A stretch of 64,000 nt of DNA from Haliotis cracherodii (Eukaryota): contig NW_027266286.1 of NCBI RefSeq assembly GCF_022045235.1, positions 29,512,001-29,576,000 of the forward strand, in the 5' to 3' direction. Shown piece by piece: positions 21,922 through 64,000 of this stretch; position 1 is the stretch's first letter, and every line of letters starts with the position of its first letter. Both the position numbers and the translations under genes were made by a program. A model generated the notes under the pieces. It did not search any database, was not told the DNA's origin, and worked only from the letters and a program-made list of their open reading frames with translations.

Positions 21922-22035
21922 ATGCTACGGAAAATTACGAGCCGGTCAGTCAATATAGTCGTGCTACATCATCACGCAGAGTGGCCATGGCGGGTGCCGG
22001 TGACCAATTCTTCGAAGGAACAGAGAAACTGTTAG
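21922..22035 (+). promoter_or_regulatory. Candidate overlapping uORF (37 aa), out of frame with AMD1
   Basis: ATG at 21922 and TAG at 22033-22035, spanning the main ATG. Relevant only if transcription starts upstream of 21922. Confidence 0.35.
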
Positions 22036-50700: not shown

Positions 50701-50865
50701 TAATAAATAATGGTGATTGTCGGTCACACGTAACAGATGTTGTGGACAATACATACAAATAATGTACCACCATTTCCATATATGATGATAAGATTTATTA
50801 TTTGTCATATTTGCCACTGTCAGGGTTGTAGAAAATAGCAACCATGTATACATGTAGGTACTAAG

Positions 50866-52528
50866 GCCATGCCTGTTTCTGCCCCTTCTGTGTCAAATAG
50901 GGAGGTACCATGTCTGTCTCAGTCCCCCTCTGTGTCAAATAGGGAGGTACCGTGTGTGTTTCAGCCCCCTCTGTGTCAAATAGGGAGGTATGATGTGTTT
51001 CAGTCCCCCTTTGTCAAATAGGGAGGTACCATGTGTGTTTCAGCCCCCTCTGTGTCAAATAGGGAGGTACCATGTTTGTTTCAGTCCCCCTTTGTCAAAT
51101 AGGGAGGTACCATGTGTGTTTCAGCCCTCCTGTGTCAAATAGGGAGGTACCATGTGTGTTTCAGTCCCCCTCTATGTCAAATAGGGAGGTCACATGTGTG
51201 TTTCAGCCCCCTCTGTGTCAAATAGGGAGGTACCATGTGTGTTTCAGACCCCCTTTGTCAAATAGGGAGGTACCGTGTGTGTTTCAGCCCCCTCTGTGTC
51301 AAATAGGGAGGTACCCTGTGTGTTTCAGTCCCCCTTTGTCAAATAGGGAGGTACCATGTGTGTTTCAGCCCTCCTGTGTCAAATAGGGAGGTACCATGTG
51401 TGTTTCAGTCCCCCTCTATGTCAAATAGGGAGGTCACATGTGTGTTTCAGCCCCCCTCTTTGTCAAATAGGGAGGTATGATGTGTTTCAGTCCCCCTTTG
51501 TCAAATAGGGAGGTACCATGTGTGTTTCAGCCCCCTCTGTGTCAAATAGGGAGGTACCATGTTTGTTTCAGTCCCCCTTTGTCAAATAGGGAGGTACCAT
51601 GTGTGTTTCAGCCCTCCTGTGTCAAATAGGGAGGTACCATGTGTGTTTCAGTCCCCCTCTATGTCAAATAGGGAGGTCACATGTGTGTTTCAGCCCCCTC
51701 TGTGTCAAATAGGGAGGTACCATGTGTGTTTCAGACCCCCTTTGTCAAATAGGGAGGTACCGTGTGTGTTTCAGCCCCCTCTGTGTCAAATAGGGAGGTA
51801 CCCTGTGTGTTTCAGTCCCCCTTTGTCAAATAGGGAGGTACCATGTGTGTTTCAGCCCCCTCTGTGTCAAATAGGGAGGTACCATGTGTGTTTCAGCCCC
51901 CTCTGTGTCAAATAGGGAGATACCATGTGTGTTTCAGTCCCCATTTGTCAAATAGGCAGGTACCATGTGTGTTTCAGCCCCCTCTGTGTCAAATAGGTAG
52001 GTACCATGTGTGTTTCAGACCCCCTTTGTCAAATAGGCAGGTACCATGTGTGTTTCAGCCCCCTTTGTGTCAAATAGGCAGGTACCATGTGTGTTTCAGC
52101 CCCCTTTGTGTCAAATAGGGAGGTACCATGTCTGTCTCAGTCCCCCTCTTTGTCAAATAGGGAGGTATGATGTGTTTCAGTCCCTCTTTGTCAAATAGGT
52201 AGGTACCATGTGTGTTTCAGCCCCTCTGTGTCAAATAGGGAGGTACCATGTGTGTTTCAGACCCCCTTTGTCAAATAGGGAGGTGCCATGCCTGTTTCAG
52301 TCCCCCTCTGTCAAATAGGGAGGTACCCTGTGTGTTTCAGTCCCCCTTTGTCAAATAGGGAGGTGCCATGCCTGTTTCAGTCCCCCTTTGTCAAATAGGG
52401 AGGTACCCTGTGTGTTTCAGTCCCCCTTTGTGTCAAATAGGCAGGTACCATGTCTGTCTCAGTCCCCCTCTGTGTCAAATAGGCAGGTACCATGTGTGTT
52501 TCAGTCCCCCTGTGTCAAATAGGAAGGT
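50866..52528. repeat. Minisatellite, ~40-42-bp unit GTCAAATAGGGAGGTACCATGTGTGTTTCAGCCCCCTCTGT, ~41 copies
   Basis: Direct periodicity; 487-bp higher-order duplication (51072 vs 51559). Confidence 0.96.
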
Positions 52529-52645
52529 GCTTGATCAAGACACAATGAATCACATTCCCCACCACCCCCTTTAAAGAAGCTGTCTCCGCACTTCACATGG
52601 AATGTGACGACAATATCAATATCTATGTAATAAACGCTATAAATA

Positions 52646-53370: not shown

Positions 53371-56300
53371 GTAAGTACTACCGACTTGACCTGATCTTAT
53401 AGAGGCTACACTGCCCTTGTGTAAGTACTACTGACTTGACCTGATGTTATAGAGGCTACACTGCCCTTGTGTAAGTACTACTGACTTGACCTGATCTTAT
53501 AGAGGCTACACTGGTCTTGTGTAAGTACTACCGACTTGACCTGATCTTATAGAGGCTACACTGCCCTTGTGTAAGTACTACTGACTTGACCTGATCTTAT
53601 AGAGGCTACACTGGGCTTGTGTAAGTACTACTGACTCTACCTGATCTTATAGAGGCTACACTGCCCTTGTGTAAGTACTACTGACTTGACCTGATCTTAT
53701 AGAGGCTACACTGCCCTTGTGTAAGTACTACCGACTTGACCTGATCTTATAGAGGCTACACTGGTCTTGTGTAAGTACTACTGACTTGACCTGATCTTAT
53801 AGAGGCTACACTGGTCTTGTGTAAGTACTACTGACTTGACCTGATGGTATAGAGGCTACACTGGGCTTGTGTAAGTACTACCGACTTGACCTGATCTTAT
53901 AAGGGCTACACTGGTCTTGTGTAAGTAATACTGACTTGACCTGATCTTATAGAGGCTACACTGGTCTTGTGTAAGTACTACTGACTTGACCTGATGGTAT
54001 AGAGGCTACACTGCCCTTGTGTAAGTACTACCGACTTGACCTGATCTTATAGAGGCTACACTGGTCTTGTGTAAGTACTACTGACTTGACCTGATCTTAT
54101 AGAGGCTACACTGGTCTTGTGTAAGTACTACCGACTTGACCTGATCTTATAGAGGCTACACTGGTCTTGTGTAAGTACTACCGACTTGACCTGATCTTAT
54201 AGAGGCTACACTGGTCTTGTGTATGTACTACCGACTTGACCTGATCTTATAGAGGCTACACTGGGCTTGTGTAAGTACTACCGACTTGACCTGATCTTAT
54301 AGAGGCTACACTGGTCTTGTGTATGTACTACCGACTTGACCTGATCTTATAGAGGCTACACTGCCCTTGTGTAAGTACTACCGACTTGACCTGATCTTAT
54401 AGAGGCTACACTGGGCTTGTGTAAGTACTACCGACTTGACCTGATCTTATAGAGGCTACACTGGGCTTGTGTAAGTACTACCGACTTGACCTGATCTTAT
54501 AAAGGCTACACTGGGCTTGTGTAAGTACTACTGACTTGACCTGATCTTATAGAGGCTACACTGCCCTTGTGTAAGTACTACCGACTTGACCTGATCTTAT
54601 AGAGGCTACACTGCCCTTGTGTAAGTACTACCGACTTGACCTGATCTTATAGAGGCTACACTGCCCTTGTGTAAGTACTACCGACTTGACCTGATCTTAT
54701 AGAGGCTACACTGGGCTTGTGTAAGTACTACCGACTTGACCTGATCTTATAGAGGCTACACTGCCCTTGTGTAAGTACTACTGACTTGACCTGATCTTAT
54801 AGAGGCTACACTGGGCTTGTGTAAGTACTACCGATTTGACCTGATCTTATAAAGGCTACACTGGGCTTGTGTAAGTACTACTGACTTGACCTGATCTTAT
54901 AGAGGCTACACTGCCCTTGTGTAAGTACTACCGACTTGACCTGATCTTATAGAGGCTACACTGGGCTTGTGTAAGTACTACCGACTTGACCTGATGGTAT
55001 AGAGGCTACACTGCCCTTGTGTAAGTACTACCGACTTGACCTGATCTTATAGAGGCTACACTGGTCTTGTGTAAGTACTACCGACTTGACCTGATGGTAT
55101 AGAGGCTACACTGCCCTTGTGTAAGTACTACCGACTTGACCTGATGGTATAGAGGCTACACTGCCCTTGTGTAAGTACTACCGACTTGACCTGATCTTAT
55201 AGAGGCTAAACTGGGCTTGTGTAAGTACTACTGACTTGACCTGATCTTATAGAGGCTACACTGCCCTTGTGTAAGTACTACCGACTTGACCTGATCTTAT
55301 AGAGGCTACACTGGGCTTGTGTAAGTACTACCGACTTGACCTGATCTTATAGAGGCTACACTGGGCTTGTGTAAGTACTACCGACTTGACCTGATCTTAT
55401 AAAGGCTACACTGGGCTTGTGTAAGTACTACTGACTTGACCTGATCTTATAGAGGCTACACTGCCCTTGTGTAAGTACTACCGACTTGACCTGATCTTAT
55501 AGAGGCTACACTGCCCTTGTGTAAGTACTACCGACTTGACCTGATCTTATAGAGGCTACACTGGGCTTGTGTAAGTACTACCGACTTGACCTGATCTTAT
55601 AGAGGCTACACTGCCCTTGTGTAAGTACTACCGACTTGACCTGATCTTATAGAGGCTACACTGGGCTTGTGTAAGTACTACCGACTTGACCTGATCTTAT
55701 AGAGGCTACACTGGGCTAGTGTAAGTACTACCGATTTGACCTGATCTTATAGAGGCTACACTGGGCTTGTGTAAGTACTACTGACTTGACCTGATCTTAT
55801 AGAGGCTACACTGCCCTTGTGTAAGTACTACCGACTTGACCTGATCTTATAGAGGCTACACTGGGCTTGTGTAAGTACTACCGACTTGACCTGATGGTAT
55901 AGAGGCTACACTGCCCTTGTGTAAGTACTACCGACTTGACCTGATCTTATAGAGGCTACACTGGTCTTGTGTAAGTACTACCGACTTGACCTGATGGTAT
56001 AGAGGCTACACTGCCCTTGTGTAAGTACTACCGACTTGACCTGATCTTATAGAGGCTAAACTGGGCTTGTGTAAGTACTACTGACTTGACCTGATCTTAT
56101 AGAGGCTACACTGCCCTTGTGTAAGTACTACCGACTTGACCTGATCTTATAGAGGCTACACTGGGCTTGTGTAAGTACTACTGACTTGACCTGATCTTAT
56201 AGAGGCTACACTGGGCTTGTGTAAGTACTACCGACTTAACCTGATCTTATAGAGGCTACACTGGCCTTGTGTAAGTACTACTGACTCTACCTGATCTTAT

Positions 56301-57695
56301 AGAGGCTACACTGCCCTTGTGTAAGTACTACCGACTTGACCTGATCTTATAGAGGCTACACTGGGCTTGTGTAAGTACTACCGACTTGACCTGATGGTAT
56401 AGAGGCTACACTGCCCTTGTGTAAGTACTACCGACTTGACCTGATGGTATAGAGGCTACACTGCCCTTGTGTAAGTACTACCGACTTGACCTGATGGTAT
56501 AGAGGCTACACTGCCCTTGTGTAAGTACTACCGACTTGACCTGATGGTATAGAGGCTACACTGGGCTTGTGCTAGTACAATTGACTTGACCTGATCTTAT
56601 AGAGGCTACACTGGTCTTGTGTAAGTACTACTGACTTGACCTGATGGTATAGAGGCTACACTGGTCTTGTGTAAGTACTACTGACTTGACCTGATGGTAT
56701 AGAGGCTACACTGGTCTTGTGTAAGTACTACTAACTTGACCTGAAGTTATTGAGGCTACACTGCCCTTGTGTAAGTACAACTGACTTGACCTGAAGTTAT
56801 TGAGGCTACACTGGTCTTGTGTAAGTACTACTGACTTGACCTGATGGTATAGAGGCTACACTGCCCTTGTGTAAGTACTACTGACTTGACCTGAAGTTAT
56901 TGAGGCTACACTGGGCTTGTGTAAGTACTACTGACTTGACCTGAAGTTATTGAGGCTACACTGGTCTTGTGTAAGTACTACTGACTTGACCTGATGGTAT
57001 AGAGGCTACACTGCCCTTGTGTAAGTACTACCGACTTGACCTGATGGTATAGAGGCTACACTGGTCTTGTGTAAGTACTACTGACTTGACCTGATCTTAT
57101 AGAGGCTACACTGCCCTTGTGTAAGTACTACCGACTTGACCTGATGGTATAGAGGCTACACTGGTCTTGTGTAAATACTACTGACTTGACCTGATCTTAT
57201 TGAGGCTACACTGGTCTTGTGTAAGTACTACTGACTTGACCTGATGGTGTAGAGGCTACACTGGTCTTGTGTAAATACTACTGACTTGACCTGATCTTAT
57301 TGAGGCTACACTGGTCTTGTGTAAGTACTACTGACTTGACCTGATCTTATAGAGGCTACGCTGGGCTTGTGTAAGTACTACCGACTTGACCTGATCTTAT
57401 AGAGGCTACACTGGGCTTGTGTAAGTACTACCGACTTGACCTGATCTTATAGAGGCTACACTGGGCTTGTGTAAGTACTACCGACTTGACCTGATCTTAT
57501 AGAGGCTACACTGGGCTTGTGTAAGTACTACTGACTTGACCTGATCTTATAGAGGCTACACTGCCCTTGTGTAAGTACTACCGACTTGACCTGATGGTAT
57601 AGAGGCTACACTGGGCTTGTGTAAGTACTACTGACTTGACCTGATCTTATAGAGGCTACACTTGGCTTGTGTAAATACTACTGACTTGACCTAAT
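53369..57695 (+). repeat. Minisatellite, exact 50-bp unit, ~86 copies, starting at the exon 9 splice donor
   Basis: Unit GTAAGTACTA(C/T)CGACTTGACCTGATCTTATAGAGGCTACACTG(CC/GT/GG)CTTGT, with CCGAC/CTGAC variants; no indels seen. Confidence 0.98.
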
Positions 57696-58574
57696 CTGAA
57701 TATTTTTTGTTGAAACTTGCTATACAGATCAGTTTCAATGTTTTGCATATAATATTTGCCTTAACGATGTTATGATCTTTCCAATTCCTCGACGTTGTAT
57801 ACACCCATGAGACTTGCACTTTAAGGTTTTAGTTATGAAACAAGTTGATATTCTATACATCATCTTAGTCGGACATTGAAGCAACAGCCACAGAATGTCC
57901 TCGGTGTGTTTTCAACAGACATTTGCAGCCAATCACTATCCAATAATATAAGATAGCTATGCTATAAATCGCAAAGAACAATGAAGAATGAAGCATAGTT
58001 TATTACACAATAAAACATTGTTCTATCATTTCTGGAGATTCGAACATGCGTTTGCAACTTGAAGACATCGTATGTTTGACAACGTTATTTTTGAAAGAGG
58101 AGTAGAGAGTTGTTCCCCATAGATGTAGCAGGGCACCAAAGATAAACGCGATGGCCAAACAATTGTATCCAAAACCAGTAGAGATACGCTTGTAGGATAA
58201 TTGGTATTGGGAGAAAAGGTACAGGTGATCAACTTGAGGATTGTGAGAAATTGAGGGAAATACCCACCTGTTGATAAAATGGGCTTGTCCGATGTCACTG
58301 AGGTCGGATTCTATTGAGGGACTCATCATTATTTAAATAGGGGTTAATATTTTTAAAGCTTGTGGATTTGATCAAAATCCTTAAAAAGGCTGCAAATAAT
58401 GCTGATATTTCATATAAGAAATAAACACTGCAGGGAGAATAAACCACTTGGGGCTGCACCCCTCATCGTTTAGTCTCCCTGCAGTGTTTTATTGTACTAT
58501 AAACACCTCCAACTTGTCATCATTTCTTAATTAAAATGTCCTCACCAACAATGTTTGACCTTTGCTCCCTACAG

Positions 58575-58649
58575 GGTTATTACATCACCATTCACGTGAC
58601 CCCTGAGCCTCACTGCAGCTATGTCAGCTTCGAGAGTAATGTGCCACAG
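58575..58649 (+). CDS. AMD1: AMD1 exon 10: GYYITIHVTPEPHCSYVSFESNVPQ
   Basis: Acceptor ccctacag, donor CAG|GTAGGA; TIHVTPE...SYVSFE motif. Confidence 0.97.
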
Positions 58650-59245
58650 GTAGGACATTCAGGAAGTACTCCGTGCAGTAACCATGGAAACTGGCACTGT
58701 GAAACTTTTTGTGAATGTGTTCTTTTCTTTCCATAATCACCAATACCCTGTACTGCATCTACAGAACACTGCTCTGCCGAACAGATTTTTTGTGAAAAGT
58801 GTCTTGAATTGCTGATATATTCTTTGTTTTATTTGCAAGGTGAAAAAATTTTCATACCAATTGGTGGAAAAATGTTACCAATTTTAACTGTTAAAGAACC
58901 AGGGTGTCATGATATCAGTTTATGTTGTATTATAAAGCTCTCGTGCAGATGTTTTCATGATGCCAAGGTCTGTTTTCAGATTAGTATAATTTGGGTAATT
59001 AGATATTAGATATTGATGATAATTTGTCTAGAAATGTTCATACATGCAGTAATGGAAGAAATTAATTCAACATCATCAGTCATTGTGTGGAAAACATTAC
59101 GCTCATAATATTTCCGGAAATATGACATTTCGTGTTTTGGAAGTATACAGATTACAATACATGTATATATATATATAGATATAGTTTTTGACGGTTGGTT
59201 AATTGTGTAGGGTTTCTGAGAAATATTGCATGGATGTATTTGCAG

Positions 59246-59326
59246 GAGACTTACCAGGACATGATCGAGAAGGTTCTCAGTGTCTTCAACCCTGGCAAGT
59301 TTCTTATGACCATATTCGCCAATAAG
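59246..59326 (+). CDS. AMD1: AMD1 exon 11: ETYQDMIEKVLSVFNPGKFLMTIFANK
   Basis: Acceptor tttgcag, donor AAG|GTAAGT; KV..VF.PGKF motif. Confidence 0.95.
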
Positions 59327-59340
59327 GTAAGTTATTGGAC

Positions 59341-59432
59341 ATCCTCCTCCTCCTCCTACTCCTCCTCCTCATCACCACCTTCATCATCACCATAATCATC
59401 ATCATAATCATCATCACAATCATCATCACATC
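59341..59432. repeat. (TCC)n-(TCA)n microsatellite in intron 11
   Basis: Direct reading. Confidence 0.9.
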
Positions 59433-59752
59433 AGACTCAATATAATAATAAGTAATGGGCTTATTGTGAATAAAATATTATAATGTCTCTCTTGAGATAC
59501 TCATTTTCAAAATGACCCAAGTCATCATTGTCTTTGCTCTGTGTGTGGAAACATCATTAGCAAGGTCATAGGTTAGGCTAGGATAAATAACTCAAATCTA
59601 TAAAGTTGGAAAATGTTAAAATTCATAGAATTAAAGGTTTTTTTACAACACAAAACCTTTAACGGATGTTGACAAATATAAACTGTTTGTTTTGATGCGC
59701 CACACAATGATGAGGAAGCCTGTGTAACTTGCTGTGCTGTGTTGTGTTGCAG

Positions 59753-59890
59753 GCCTCCCTTGCCCGGAACTCCCACCGAGACCTGGAGAAGAAGGAGCAG
59801 ATGAAGGGCTACTTAGTCCAGGACCATCAGTACTGCCGCTTCAAGAACTACAATCTCACCTACTCCTTCTTCTCCCGCCCTGTCATTTAG
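59753..59890 (+). CDS. AMD1: AMD1 exon 12 coding part: ASLARNSHRDLEKKEQMKGYLVQDHQYCRFKNYNLTYSFFSRPVI*
   Basis: Acceptor tgttgcag; the G.....Q...F..YN.....F pattern of the AdoMetDC C-terminus; TAG at 59888-59890. Confidence 0.92.
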   Translation, partial: ASLARNSHRDLEKKEQMKGYLVQDHQYCRFKNYNLTYSFFSRPVI

Positions 59891-60139
59891 GAGAGAACGT
59901 GCAGGGGTCCCACCAGGCGCAGCGTTGTTGCTGATGCTGCACCTGGAACCTTGGTTTGTGTCTGCAAACCCACGGGACCTGACTGCACACGTCGTAGTTT
60001 CCTTCCCTTCATAGACTTTTGCCTCTCTATTGCTTTTGTACATATTGTGTTCGTTGTGCGTGTGTTTGTATGGAACTCTCGAAAGAACAGAAAGAAGCAC
60101 AAGATTTTGTGCGGGTACATCACCCGTACACCCAGATAA
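59891..60139 (+). other. 82-codon in-frame open tail after the AMD1 stop (candidate readthrough extension)
   Basis: No in-frame stop until TAA at 60137-60139. The ORF-track entry 59951..60139 is in the AMD1 frame. Translation is not demonstrated. Confidence 0.5.
59899..59988 (+). promoter_or_regulatory. Predicted three-way-junction RNA structure 8 nt after the stop codon
   Basis: Hand pairing: GTGCAG/CTGCAC, GGGTCCC/GGGACCT, CCAGGCGCAGCGTT/GATGCTGCACCTGG and GGTTTG/CAAACC. Confidence 0.6.
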
Positions 60140-60353
60140 AGTTTGCATGCGGATTCTGACTGAGCTAATCCAGGTCACCGCGTGATCATGCATGCATGCA
60201 TGCGCTAATCGTTCTCCGGGACGATGCAAGGCAGTCAGCAGTGTTTGTACCTGCCTCATGCCCCAACACATACGTGTAGACTCTCACAGCACTTACTCAG
60301 GAGACCTGGTCAGAGGTGGCATTGGAGAGGGGTTTTTTTTATTAAAAAGTGCA

Positions 60354-60359
60354 AATAAA
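60354..60359 (+). promoter_or_regulatory. Candidate AMD1 polyadenylation signal AATAAA
   Basis: First AATAAA I found after the stop and tail (ATTAAA also at 60341); usage unknown. Confidence 0.3.
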
Positions 60360-60829
60360 TGGAGGTTCATCCCCAAACTGCATAGATTTCCGTTATGGTT
60401 ACAGTAGATTACATAGCATGATACAAAAATCATGAAACATGATTCAATATATATATTCTTCAAAATTTTGTTAATCCAACAATTTATCAATTCTGAATTT
60501 TATAAAAGTTACTGTAAGTAGCAAAATTTTACATGCAATTCTGAATTCTGTTTTCTTATATTTAACTACTAAGTAAAGTAGTTTTTGGAAAAACTTGTTT
60601 CCACAGGCGTAGTGATTGCATGGCACACATCAGTGATAAAACTGTTCCTAATACACAACATTATTCCTCCTGTCCAGGTCTCCCAAGAGTACAAGCGCTC
60701 TCTGTTCTTCCGAGGGTGTCATCTCACCTCTGTGTGCTTGGTGTAGGGTTGTATTGAAAACTTGGAATGTTGCTTCTGTGATGGAATACAGTGAGACCCT
60801 GCTAATTCGGAAACCGTGCCTTTTCCACA

Positions 60830-61145
60830 CGACAGAAAAAATGTGTTGCCATTTTGATTGACTAGTTAATGATCAATTGATCTGGATCGAGAAGTCTTGC
60901 CTTTTCTCCAATAATTAACAGAAGAAATATTTCGCTATTTTGATTGACTCTTTAATGGTTAAATCCGAATCTGGAAGTCTTGCCTTTTGTGCAAAAATGA
61001 ACAGGAAAAATATGTTGCTATTTATATTGATTCATTCACGATGAAATCCATTTCTGGAAATCTTGACTTTCACGCACGTTTGAACAAGAAAAATATGTTG
61101 CTATTTTGATTGACTCATAAATGATGAAATCTGGATCGGGGTCTT
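60830..61145. repeat. Degenerate ~85-bp tandem repeat, 4 copies
   Basis: Recurring AAAAATATGTTGCTATTTTGATTGACT...GAAGTCTTGCCTTTT. Confidence 0.7.
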
Positions 61146-64000
61146 GAAATTGATACGAGAAAGTGTCGTAACTCCGACAGATACGTCAGTCAGTCAAGAG
61201 AAGCGGCAACATGAACAGCTATGATCACCTTTGTTTCTCAGGAAGTCAGTGTTCTCGGACCAACTAATCTTTATTCTGGACAATAAACTTAAAAACACTG
61301 TCCATATTAACAGGGTTCCACTGTACAGATTTCCCTCTGTAACATTCTCAACAAGGGAGACAACTGGTGGTTATCAGTCCCAGCTGGAACTAAAGTCAGT
61401 TCAACATACATCAAAGTCAGGGAATGTCAAGTAAAATGTTCTGATTTTATTCTTCTCTTGAGTAATAACGCTCAACCTACCAGAGAGTTAAGTTAAACTG
61501 TCAGCATGACCAATGTTTTGCTTTGTTGGACTTTGTTACAAAGGGCATTACAAATAATTCCATAAAAACAGCCTGTCTGCCAAATTCTTAAAAGCAGGCC
61601 TAGATGACACTGAGTTGTTAACTCTATGCTGGTCTGATTAACTCCCTGAGTTGAAGCTGCTAAAACAATTCAGTTTGTTTGTTTCTTTCAGCTTAATTGG
61701 TTTACCACAGTTTCTGCTCTGTAGCAAACAAATATTGATTGCTTCTGTATTTAGCCAAAACGGTTTGCTATGTAGGTTTGCTAAGTTGAAACAGACAGGA
61801 TTAGCAGCAGCAAGCTTAGACAATGAAATGACAACATCATGTTTGGCCATAAATGGAAAGTCTTCATCATTTGTAGTATTTTTTCACAGAAAGCAATGGA
61901 ATGTATACTGCTCAACTTTTGCCAAGAACCACACCTTTGACAAAAAATTACCATTTTGGCCTTTAGGAAATGTTGAGTGGTATACAAGCCTTGTTCTGTT
62001 CCAGCTTGCTCATGTCTGACTTACATCTTGTATGGTTCATTCCAAAATCTGTTTTCATCTTTTGGGGTATTTTTGATAACTAAGCAATTTTTTGCAATAT
62101 GATAAAATGATGAAGAATGGATTGAGTGATGTCATATCACCAATCACCACATGATGGTAAGGTGACATGAGACTGCAGAATGATGCAGATGCTCTAGATA
62201 GTTGGGACAACAATCATTAATGATGGAGTGTGATTTATCATCCAAAACTGACTCCCTCGGGAGATATCATTTGGGTGAGATGAAGTGATAGCTCCTAGGA
62301 GATATTGGTACAACGAAATTGCATCACAATTTCTTGCAGACTATTTTGACATGAAAACCAAAAGTCATCACTAATCTGTCTGTCACTGAAGCTGGTCAGC
62401 TGTACTTTTCACACTCAAGACACGACTGTACTTATTACTGTTTACAAACTAAAAAAGATTGAGGAATGATATTGGATGATGAATAGCATCTCATCCTCGT
62501 CACTTTTGACATAGAAAATGTCAACACTCTTTGATAAAAGGAAGTTAACTTATGGGTGTCAACGTCTTTATAATGAGGACCACAGGAGTATATGCTTCCC
62601 CCTTCATCAGGTGGACTCCGAAACGTTGTTCCTCATTATAAAGCAGTTGACTTACATAAATTATCTACCTTTTGTGTATCACTTCTAAATGCCTTTCAAA
62701 GATTTGACTCTTTGAAAAAGCTTTTAAACCCCTCGGCAAGCCTCGCAGTCTTTAACTTTGATTGACTTGTGTTGACATATTGGATATCATAAGACCCTCC
62801 AGTGAGATCCTTTATAAGCCAGGTACAGTCACTGTAGGGAGGATGTAAATGAAATATATCCAGTCAGTGTGTAGCTCTGGTTGATAGCATGAAGTAGAGG
62901 TAGTCTCTCACAGATAATATTTCAGATTTTAATCCCAATCTCATGAATAGGTGTCTGTTTTCAGTTTATGTCTAGACATTGTAATTAGAGACTACTGTCA
63001 AATTTCAGTTTGTAGTCTGAAGTAGTTTGAAATGTGTTAGGACTGCCAATTGGTTAGACCCTAGCACCCTGTTATGCTTTTGGAATTCTAAAATTTCCTA
63101 GCATGGAATTCATTAATGCAAAGATCTGATCTAGTTTTTGAATTGCCTTTAGAATTGATACTCATAAGAGAGAAATAAAGGATGTCAACTTCTTTATTAC
63201 GTGGAAAACAACATTTTGGAGTAATTCTCCTCCATTGGGTGAAAGATTGCTAGGGAGCAGAGAGAATATATGTACTGGTGCATGTAAAAACAATGAAAGG
63301 AGTATGATAAGGTGGAAACTAACACGGGAAGTCAGCAGTTAATTAGCGGCTATTGGTGATTAGCAATAAACAAATAAATGGAACCCAGGGGTGCTAAGTT
63401 TCCACTTTTATTGTTGGCATCCATAAATTCTCTCACTTAAGTCTGATCTACGAAAAAACTTATTAATAGTATCAGACAGAAGCATGGATCCAGGTGGGGT
63501 TACGCAGGTGTACACACCTCTCTTTTTGAAACATACTGTAGATTTGGAAATCGTGGAGGTGATATGTGTATCAGGGTGTAACAATTCTATGACAAACTCA
63601 TTTTGGGATATACTTGCAAAAAAGTAAATGACAAACAAATGGAAATTGCTTCATCAGGTTATTTGCTTTCATCTAACACTTGTACATGCTAAATGCATCC
63701 CTCCATTTCCAAGTGTGTGTCCATGCTTGGACATACATCATGGCAGGAAAGGGGTGGACCAGTTAGACTACATGTGTGAAAAGGTAACGGTCTACAGAAT
63801 TCGCATGATGACCTTTTTTTGGTCATCTGCTCACAGTATATGTTAACCAATCAGAAGCAAGAATACAGAGCAAAAGACTTCAGATCACTTGAAAGATCTT
63901 CTGATTAGCCATGACCAAACACAGGTGGCAGATTCTTCTATTAAATTATCGGTATTGGTTGGTTATCACGATGGCCACTGTTTGTCTCTGAATCTTTCAC

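Follow-up and report, generated by a model that had tools for sequence, protein, structure and literature searches.

A stem conserved behind the AMD1 stop codon of Haliotis cracherodii and its probable role in readthrough into an in-frame tail

Introduction

Why does a stable RNA fold begin only a few bases beyond the stop codon of AMD1 in Haliotis cracherodii, and is the sequence behind that stop translated? The trigger and purpose of AMD1 readthrough in vertebrates are still disputed (queueing versus degradation), and to our knowledge few cellular genes have a structure-stimulated UAG. An initial annotation of the locus described a three-way-junction fold exactly 8 nt downstream of the AMD1 UAG, and read it as a readthrough stimulator or, more speculatively, as a polyamine- or SAM-responsive 3′-UTR element. 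Here we report a computational analysis of this fold, of the sequence downstream of it, and of the corresponding region in other animals.

Results

AMD1 gene and transcript

The window, that is, the whole stretch of 64,000 nucleotides that was analyzed, contains a multi-exon AMD1 gene (S-adenosylmethionine decarboxylase) on the + strand, with its ATG at 21987 and its stop codon at 59888-59890. The last exon occurs as a single copy in the H. cracherodii genome. The features around the stop codon are as follows.

59753..59890, + strand: last coding exon of AMD1, with C-terminal R-P-V-I-stop; 100% match to the C-terminus of the Haliotis AMD1 protein P0001
59888..59890, + strand: first stop codon, UAG with G next, read from the sequence; UAG-G is also present in the gastropod locus L002
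59891-59898, + strand: 8-nt spacer GAGAGAAC, read from the sequence; the L002 spacer is also 8 nt, with 5/8 letters identical
59899..59911, + strand: 5′ arm of stem P1, predicted readthrough stimulator, from the fold; 13/13 pairs kept in L002
59913-59926 with 59933-59946, + strand: hairpin P2 inside P1, with a C.A mismatch at 59918/59941; pair probability 0.94-1.0
59953-59958 with 59965-59970, + strand: hairpin P3 inside P1; pair probability 0.92-1.0
59974..59988, + strand: 3′ arm of P1, from the fold, with a 2-nt GA bulge at 59981-59982; L002 counterpart at locus positions 1277-1291

The splice joint 59326>59753 was found in three of four abalone runs, and we guess the contigs of these three to be RNA; the fourth run was unspliced. 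Past this joint, the contigs of the three runs extend through the fold over 580 to 950 nt, and the fold therefore belongs to the spliced AMD1 mRNA. The abalone runs were used as contigs, in which rare splice forms, editing and expression level are invisible.

A stable fold 3′ of the UAG

P1 pairs 59899-59911 with 59974-59988, includes one G-U pair and starts at +9 after the stop. The helix coordinates of the initial annotation (spacer, P1, P2 and P3) all agree with the sequence, and its count of about 32 pairs was close: RNAfold gives 33 pairs in 59899-59988, the extra one being a U-G pair in P3. The folding z-score that it had suggested computing was -4.44 (-51.3 kcal/mol); 0/200 shuffles folded as well, and the minimum free energy structure was the same as the centroid. 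All 33 pairs were retained in three longer contexts, with probabilities of 0.74-1.0, and the 105-nt segment at 59901 had the lowest folding energy among 1273 segments tiling the 64 kb. The minus strand of this region also folds well (z -3.92), so the z-score alone cannot choose the strand. An Rfam search of 55000-64000 placed no family on the fold; two sub-threshold miRNA matches were found on the minus strand, outside the fold.

Three variants among the abalone runs fall inside the fold: one in a loop, one at a junction base that is variable in 3/4 runs, and one at 59926, where a P2 U-G pair is turned into C-G in one run. All three are compatible with pairing, but with p about 0.16. The fold 3′ of the Haliotis AMD1 stop is real.

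P1 is conserved in a heterobranch gastropod

Metagenome contigs were scanned with a 33-protein AMD1 alignment, and the best 80 of 183 relatives were kept. Among these 80, the sole other mollusc DNA is L002, a heterobranch gastropod mRNA that was grouped beside Aplysia among heterobranch gastropods in the AMD1 protein tree. The split between vetigastropods and heterobranchs is several hundred million years old. L002 has a UAG, an 8-nt spacer and a P1 start at +9, all as in Haliotis. It also keeps 13/13 P1 pairs, including one double change (C-G to U-A) and one single change (G-U to A-U), and its P1 has the 2-nt bulge in different letters. Pair probability was 0.99-1.0 for 12/13 of these pairs, and the duplex test gave p 0.005. 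Folding of L002 on a local scale of 100 nt yielded z -0.08; a long-range P1 would escape such folding.

The P1 loop measures 62 nt in Haliotis versus about 260 nt in L002, and no counterpart of P2 or P3 was seen within the L002 loop. Because P1 is kept while the loop differs and lacks P2 and P3, the conserved unit is P1 and not the three-way junction. As judged from the two sequences, selection acts on the closing stem P1 and on how far it lies from the stop; the three-way junction is the form found in abalone. A 33-nt tandem repeat that preserves the tail reading frame lies inside the L002 loop (L002:1130-1260).

Further mollusc-type tails were available as peptides, and 6/6 of them contained a 3′ arm translation of the form [RG]-[PLS]-x-C-T, at a shuffle rate of 0.6-2.6% each. 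In one of them, P0140, the arms read C-R-D-L / R-S-V-C-T, compared with C-R-G-L / R-P-I-C-T in L002; we infer that the G>D replacement in the 5′ arm and the P>S replacement in the 3′ arm match the expected outcome of a G-C to A-U swap. Covariation across molluscs, also among the checks suggested for this locus, is thus present for P1 in the form of retained pairs with compensatory changes, but over two DNA sequences plus peptide inference.

An in-frame tail with a conserved end

The UAG opens onto an in-frame tail, with the following features.

59891..60139, + strand: 82-codon in-frame tail, ending with TAA at 60137-60139; no insertion or deletion in four abalone runs
60002..60058, + strand: hydrophobic part of the tail, with a Kyte-Doolittle mean of 2.33 over 19 residues
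60062..60139, + strand: conserved tail end, predicted arrest or targeting peptide, with F-24, W-22, S-20, a basic run, R-4, P-2 and the stop
60140..60339, + strand: substitution-free stretch past the second stop, 200 nt, in four abalone runs

Frames +1 and +2 after the Haliotis stop close at 40 and 13 codons. An open frame of 82 codons has a chance of about 0.02 from composition alone, and the tail therefore needs comparison with relatives. Ungapped alignment of the last 25 tail codons between Haliotis and L002 gave 13/25 identical residues, 8 of them via synonymous codons. Differences over the tail end were distributed by codon position as 11/8/16 (permutation p 1e-5), and the stop was swapped between TAA and TAG. 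At the level of sequence comparison, this demonstrates that the last 25 tail codons have changed in the manner of protein-coding sequence. F, W, S, K, R, K, Y, R and P were invariant in 8 mollusc-type tails, and annelid-like tail ends aligned with the mollusc ones ungapped or with one extra residue.

A tail profile of 38 positions, built from 7 tail ends, was searched against 1.84 billion proteins. It matched 23 proteins, 21 of them at the very C-terminus, and 3 of these 21 were the inputs. Two matches, P0129 and P0133, were repeat proteins and were removed. Profile matches and another search brought the further tails with the same end to 20 in total; the motif is present in profile-found tails by construction, whereas its C-terminal placement is not. 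W-x-S was located 22 or 23 residues before the stop in 27/27 tails of this type, over tail lengths of about 80 to 320. Five of the proteins so found had an AMD1 C-terminus, one W at the stop position and then the tail. The W is most simply a TGA read as Trp by the gene caller, which ties tail and enzyme together in frame.

Within the first 57 tail codons, 5/7 abalone variants alter the residue, so the middle of the Haliotis tail is unconstrained. The region 60060-60339 had zero substitutions in any abalone run, versus 19 in the next 316 nt in run X11; the p value of about 5e-8 for this region applies to borders picked after the fact. No stable fold was found in 60140-60340 (z -0.28).

Stems and tails in other animals

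From the best 80 of 183 relatives, 54 loci, counting the one in the Haliotis window, had 150 nt or more of sequence beyond the stop. We defined a long tail as one of at least 80 codons, or of at least 50 when the frame was still open where the contig ended, and found such tails in 24/54 of these loci. G followed the stop in 23/24 long-tail loci and UAA was used in 0/24, compared with 9 with G and 11 with UAA among the other 30. Of the three frames beyond the stop, frame 0 stayed open longest in 14/14 non-arthropod loci and in 18/21 among the loci listed. In the protein tree, L003-L008 were placed with annelids and L048-L053 with Daphnia, and L010-L018 and L020/L021/L058 formed two further animal groups without a named neighbor.

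Among the same best 80 of 183, the arm at +8..+25 paired better than shuffles (p <= 0.05) in 16/19 non-arthropod animal loci, compared with 2/8 arthropod loci and 1/26 control loci; related loci amount to about five lineages, and these locus counts are not independent. The duplex test failed for L004, L007 and L056, and most arthropod loci had no stem. Stem sequences differ among the groups, with starts at +8 to +11; the annelid-like loci and the two further animal groups have long tails as well as stems. The hairpin of the annelid-like loci has 11 pairs, which are 98% paired among 5 sequences, with double changes at 2 of them; this covariation was equalled by 34/500 shuffles and is suggestive only. 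Hairpins of L010-L018 were compared through an anchored pair table. In the annelid-like locus L003, the post-stop arm is predicted to pair at about +600 (p 0.05), closing a long variable loop, and in L004, also annelid-like, its predicted partner likewise lies several hundred bases away on the 3′ side, a pairing that was not significant.

Three other conserved AMD1 tail ends were observed: K-P-R with basic residues in L011-L014/L018, K-Y-R in L020-L021, and W-W-R-T-K-I-S in the cladoceran loci L048-L053. All three are preceded by a stem whose start falls at about +8 to +12. Comparison of the final 14 codons of the cladoceran loci gave 80/84 identical residue pairs, 30 of them synonymous.

Residues ahead of the first stop are also conserved. 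Those at 59876-59890 in Haliotis follow the pattern R/P-P-V/I/Y-I/L in 36/37 mollusc proteins; the last four AMD1 residues are K-F-P-S in insects and crustaceans and K-A-P-S in chelicerates, in most arthropods among those listed. Such phylum-fixed residues hint that the nascent peptide may also shape termination at the first stop.

Discussion

Our analysis suggests that the Haliotis cassette is real and conserved, and it is probably functional. On the sequence evidence, programmed readthrough at Haliotis AMD1 is highly probable, and there are good grounds to regard P1 as its stimulator. Likely, too, is the combined reading that P1, placed 8 nt after the AMD1 stop, drives partial UAG readthrough into the conserved in-frame tail. 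For arrest at the tail end, which is argued by analogy, we consider the chances even. The stimulator role proposed by the initial annotation thus survives for P1, whose +9 start and bulge are kept in L002, but not for the three-way junction, which is not conserved; the conserved in-frame tail opened by the UAG, which had escaped that annotation, adds to the readthrough reading.

The proposed mechanism would be as follows. While the ribosome holds the UAG in its A site, a spacer of 8 nt would bring the lower end of P1 to the entrance of the mRNA channel, where the stem would favor a near-cognate tRNA over the release factor. P2 and P3 would be lineage-specific filling of the loop and may add stability. 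Ribosomes that read through would go on along the 82 tail codons. The final 22-25 residues of the tail, at a constant distance from the second stop in tails of about 80 to over 250 codons, would then work inside the exit tunnel to retard termination. Extended AMD1, with its near-terminal hydrophobic stretch, would probably be degraded, and the cassette would thereby lower or time AMD1 output.

Stem-driven readthrough could instead yield a working, membrane-anchored AMD1 isoform, as a hydrophobic stretch followed by a basic run is tail-anchor-like. Most mollusc- and annelid-type tails have hydrophobic Kyte-Doolittle means of 1.5-2.7 immediately ahead of W-x-S and the basic run, as this model would predict. 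However, 19-residue means are 0.5-1.2 in heterobranch-type tails, where the stretch is weak, and -0.4 to 0.6 in the L011-L018 group, where it is absent, and the last 22-25 residues stay constant in length and sequence despite such variable hydrophobicity. The human AMD1 tail is described as a degron, not an anchor (bioRxiv 2022.07.20.500724). A membrane-anchored product is, in our view, unlikely.

The tail might also be reached without readthrough, by alternative splicing from 59326 to 59891, which would be in phase and would remove the last 45 AMD1 residues. The sequence 59860-59891 is acceptor-like (TTTAG|G after a pyrimidine-rich stretch), and P0140 has a run of pyrimidine codons and a Q directly before E-T-V-C-R, resembling an intron end at +1. 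Yet 59326>59753 was the sole joint in three spliced contig sets (contigs drop rare forms), the tail end was present in 0/163 AMD1-like proteins compared, and such a cut would explain neither the in-frame tails of UGA-G groups nor a stem at a fixed distance from the stop. This makes the splicing route quite improbable.

The other function that had been proposed for the fold was that of a 3′-UTR element, its three-way junction binding a ligand (spermidine, SAM or dcSAM) or a protein, with no need for translation of the tail. The high stability of the fold, together with the role of AMD1 in polyamine synthesis, invites this idea, which found no support here: the conserved junction nucleotides and architecture of a riboswitch-like element were not observed, since L002 lacks the junction as well as P2 and P3, the junction base varies in 3/4 abalone runs, and Rfam gave no match. 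The fixed spacer and the coding pattern of the tail end would also be left unexplained, and we judge such an element to be very unlikely.

Least probable of all is loss of the stop through A-to-I editing, in which the adjacent double-stranded RNA would direct the conversion of UAG to UIG, decoded as Trp. The W at the stop position in five database proteins, known as proteins only, could speak for it. However, no A>G was seen at 59889 in four abalone runs, transcript-like loci keep intact stops, and the UAG lies outside the stem. The W cases all belong to UGA-type groups, one on an 8.4-Mb contig, as would be expected if the gene caller took TGA for Trp.

Readthrough stimulated by a stem, the reading that we prefer, has its closest structural parallel in the extended 3′ stems of VEEV, SINV, tobraviruses and Drosophila kelch and headcase. 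According to PMC3159437, a stem 8-12 nt after the stop of VEEV, with a variable loop, stimulates readthrough as shown by mutation, and a similar stem is predicted for kelch, both having 8-9 nt spacers and long variable loops. These stems have 11-14 pairs and a small bulge, start 8-12 nt after the stop and close a long variable loop in which inner hairpins are possible (PMC3159437). Haliotis P1 is alike in these respects, with a start 8-12 nt after the stop, compensated arms around a variable loop, and coding constraint downstream. Unlike them, it belongs to a cellular mollusc gene, it follows UAG-G and not UGA-C, and its stimulation is predicted only. The MuLV UAG, with an 8-nt spacer and a pseudoknot (PMC3159437), has UAG-G and the spacer length in common with Haliotis; the conserved arms of Haliotis are already explained by a nested fold, as given by folding tools that predict no pseudoknots. 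A second resemblance to viral readthrough was observed at L004, L007, L008, L012, L017, L021, L028 and L056, where the first post-stop codons read G-R/G-N and then C/U-U-A. The second post-stop codon of these loci resembles the tobamovirus readthrough motif YYA, unlike that of Haliotis and L002.

With regard to the gene itself, vertebrate AMD1 provides the obvious comparison. Its readthrough is followed by ribosome stalling and its extension is conserved across vertebrates (PMC13025110), the human tail being linked to slowed termination and product degradation (PMC13025110; bioRxiv 2022.07.20.500724). Haliotis is alike in having a long in-frame extension of the same gene, with a conserved end and hydrophobic stretches before it, but, counted back from the second stop, it shares only the Pro at position -2 and the Ser at position -20. 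The vertebrate clamp (F-4, R-7, K-11) and hook (R-3) are replaced in Haliotis by R, Y, I and T, and the 8 mollusc-type tails carry T, K or R at position -3. Mollusc and annelid tails differ further in ending with W-x-S, a basic run and R-x-P. Moreover, no 3′ stem is described for vertebrate AMD1 in the accessible part of PMC13025110, and the fish-like locus L025 had no stable fold after its stop (z -0.5). By its predicted arrest residues, the Haliotis cassette is outside the vertebrate C-tail family. We consider it to be probably the spiralian counterpart of vertebrate AMD1 readthrough, with a tail that probably stalls the ribosome or leads to degradation.

Among other invertebrates, the SamDC orthologue AGAP009619 of Anopheles gambiae is listed as a readthrough candidate of 268 codons in Supplemental Data S1 of PMC5100048. 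Its entry has TGA-G and no RNAz structure, its Drosophila orthologue is listed as non-readthrough, and it is absent from the main text (PMC5100048). It is thus also an invertebrate AMD1 with a long predicted readthrough region and G after the stop; it differs from Haliotis in its TGA, and the arthropod tails compared here end in a different motif. Our literature search, whose coverage left subscription journals largely outside, found no report of AMD1 readthrough in molluscs or annelids or of an AMD1 3′ stem.

AMD1 readthrough would date back toward the bilaterian ancestor, given that tails are conserved in molluscs, annelid-like worms and other invertebrates, and conservation this wide would argue for selection and not noise. 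The defined RNA stem would make readthrough switchable by point mutation with the enzyme untouched, and the mollusc tail end, which differs from that of vertebrates, is a candidate for a new arrest peptide. A larger scheme, possible but doubtful at present, would be an ancestral bilaterian AMD1 readthrough-arrest circuit that serves in spiralians as a polyamine sensor composed of a pre-stop peptide, a rate-setting stem at +9 and an arrest peptide of a new type.

Additional observations were made elsewhere in the gene. No MAGDIS-like ORF begins at any of the 7 ATGs that lie within 500 genomic bases 5′ of the AMD1 start. An out-of-frame upstream ORF of 37 codons (21922-22035) overlaps the AMD1 start codon at 21987. 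In some gastropods, as P0140 suggests, an intron may be located directly 3′ of the stop codon. Finally, an AMD1 intron contains a long tandem repeat array (50839-52574) that yields repetitive open frames.
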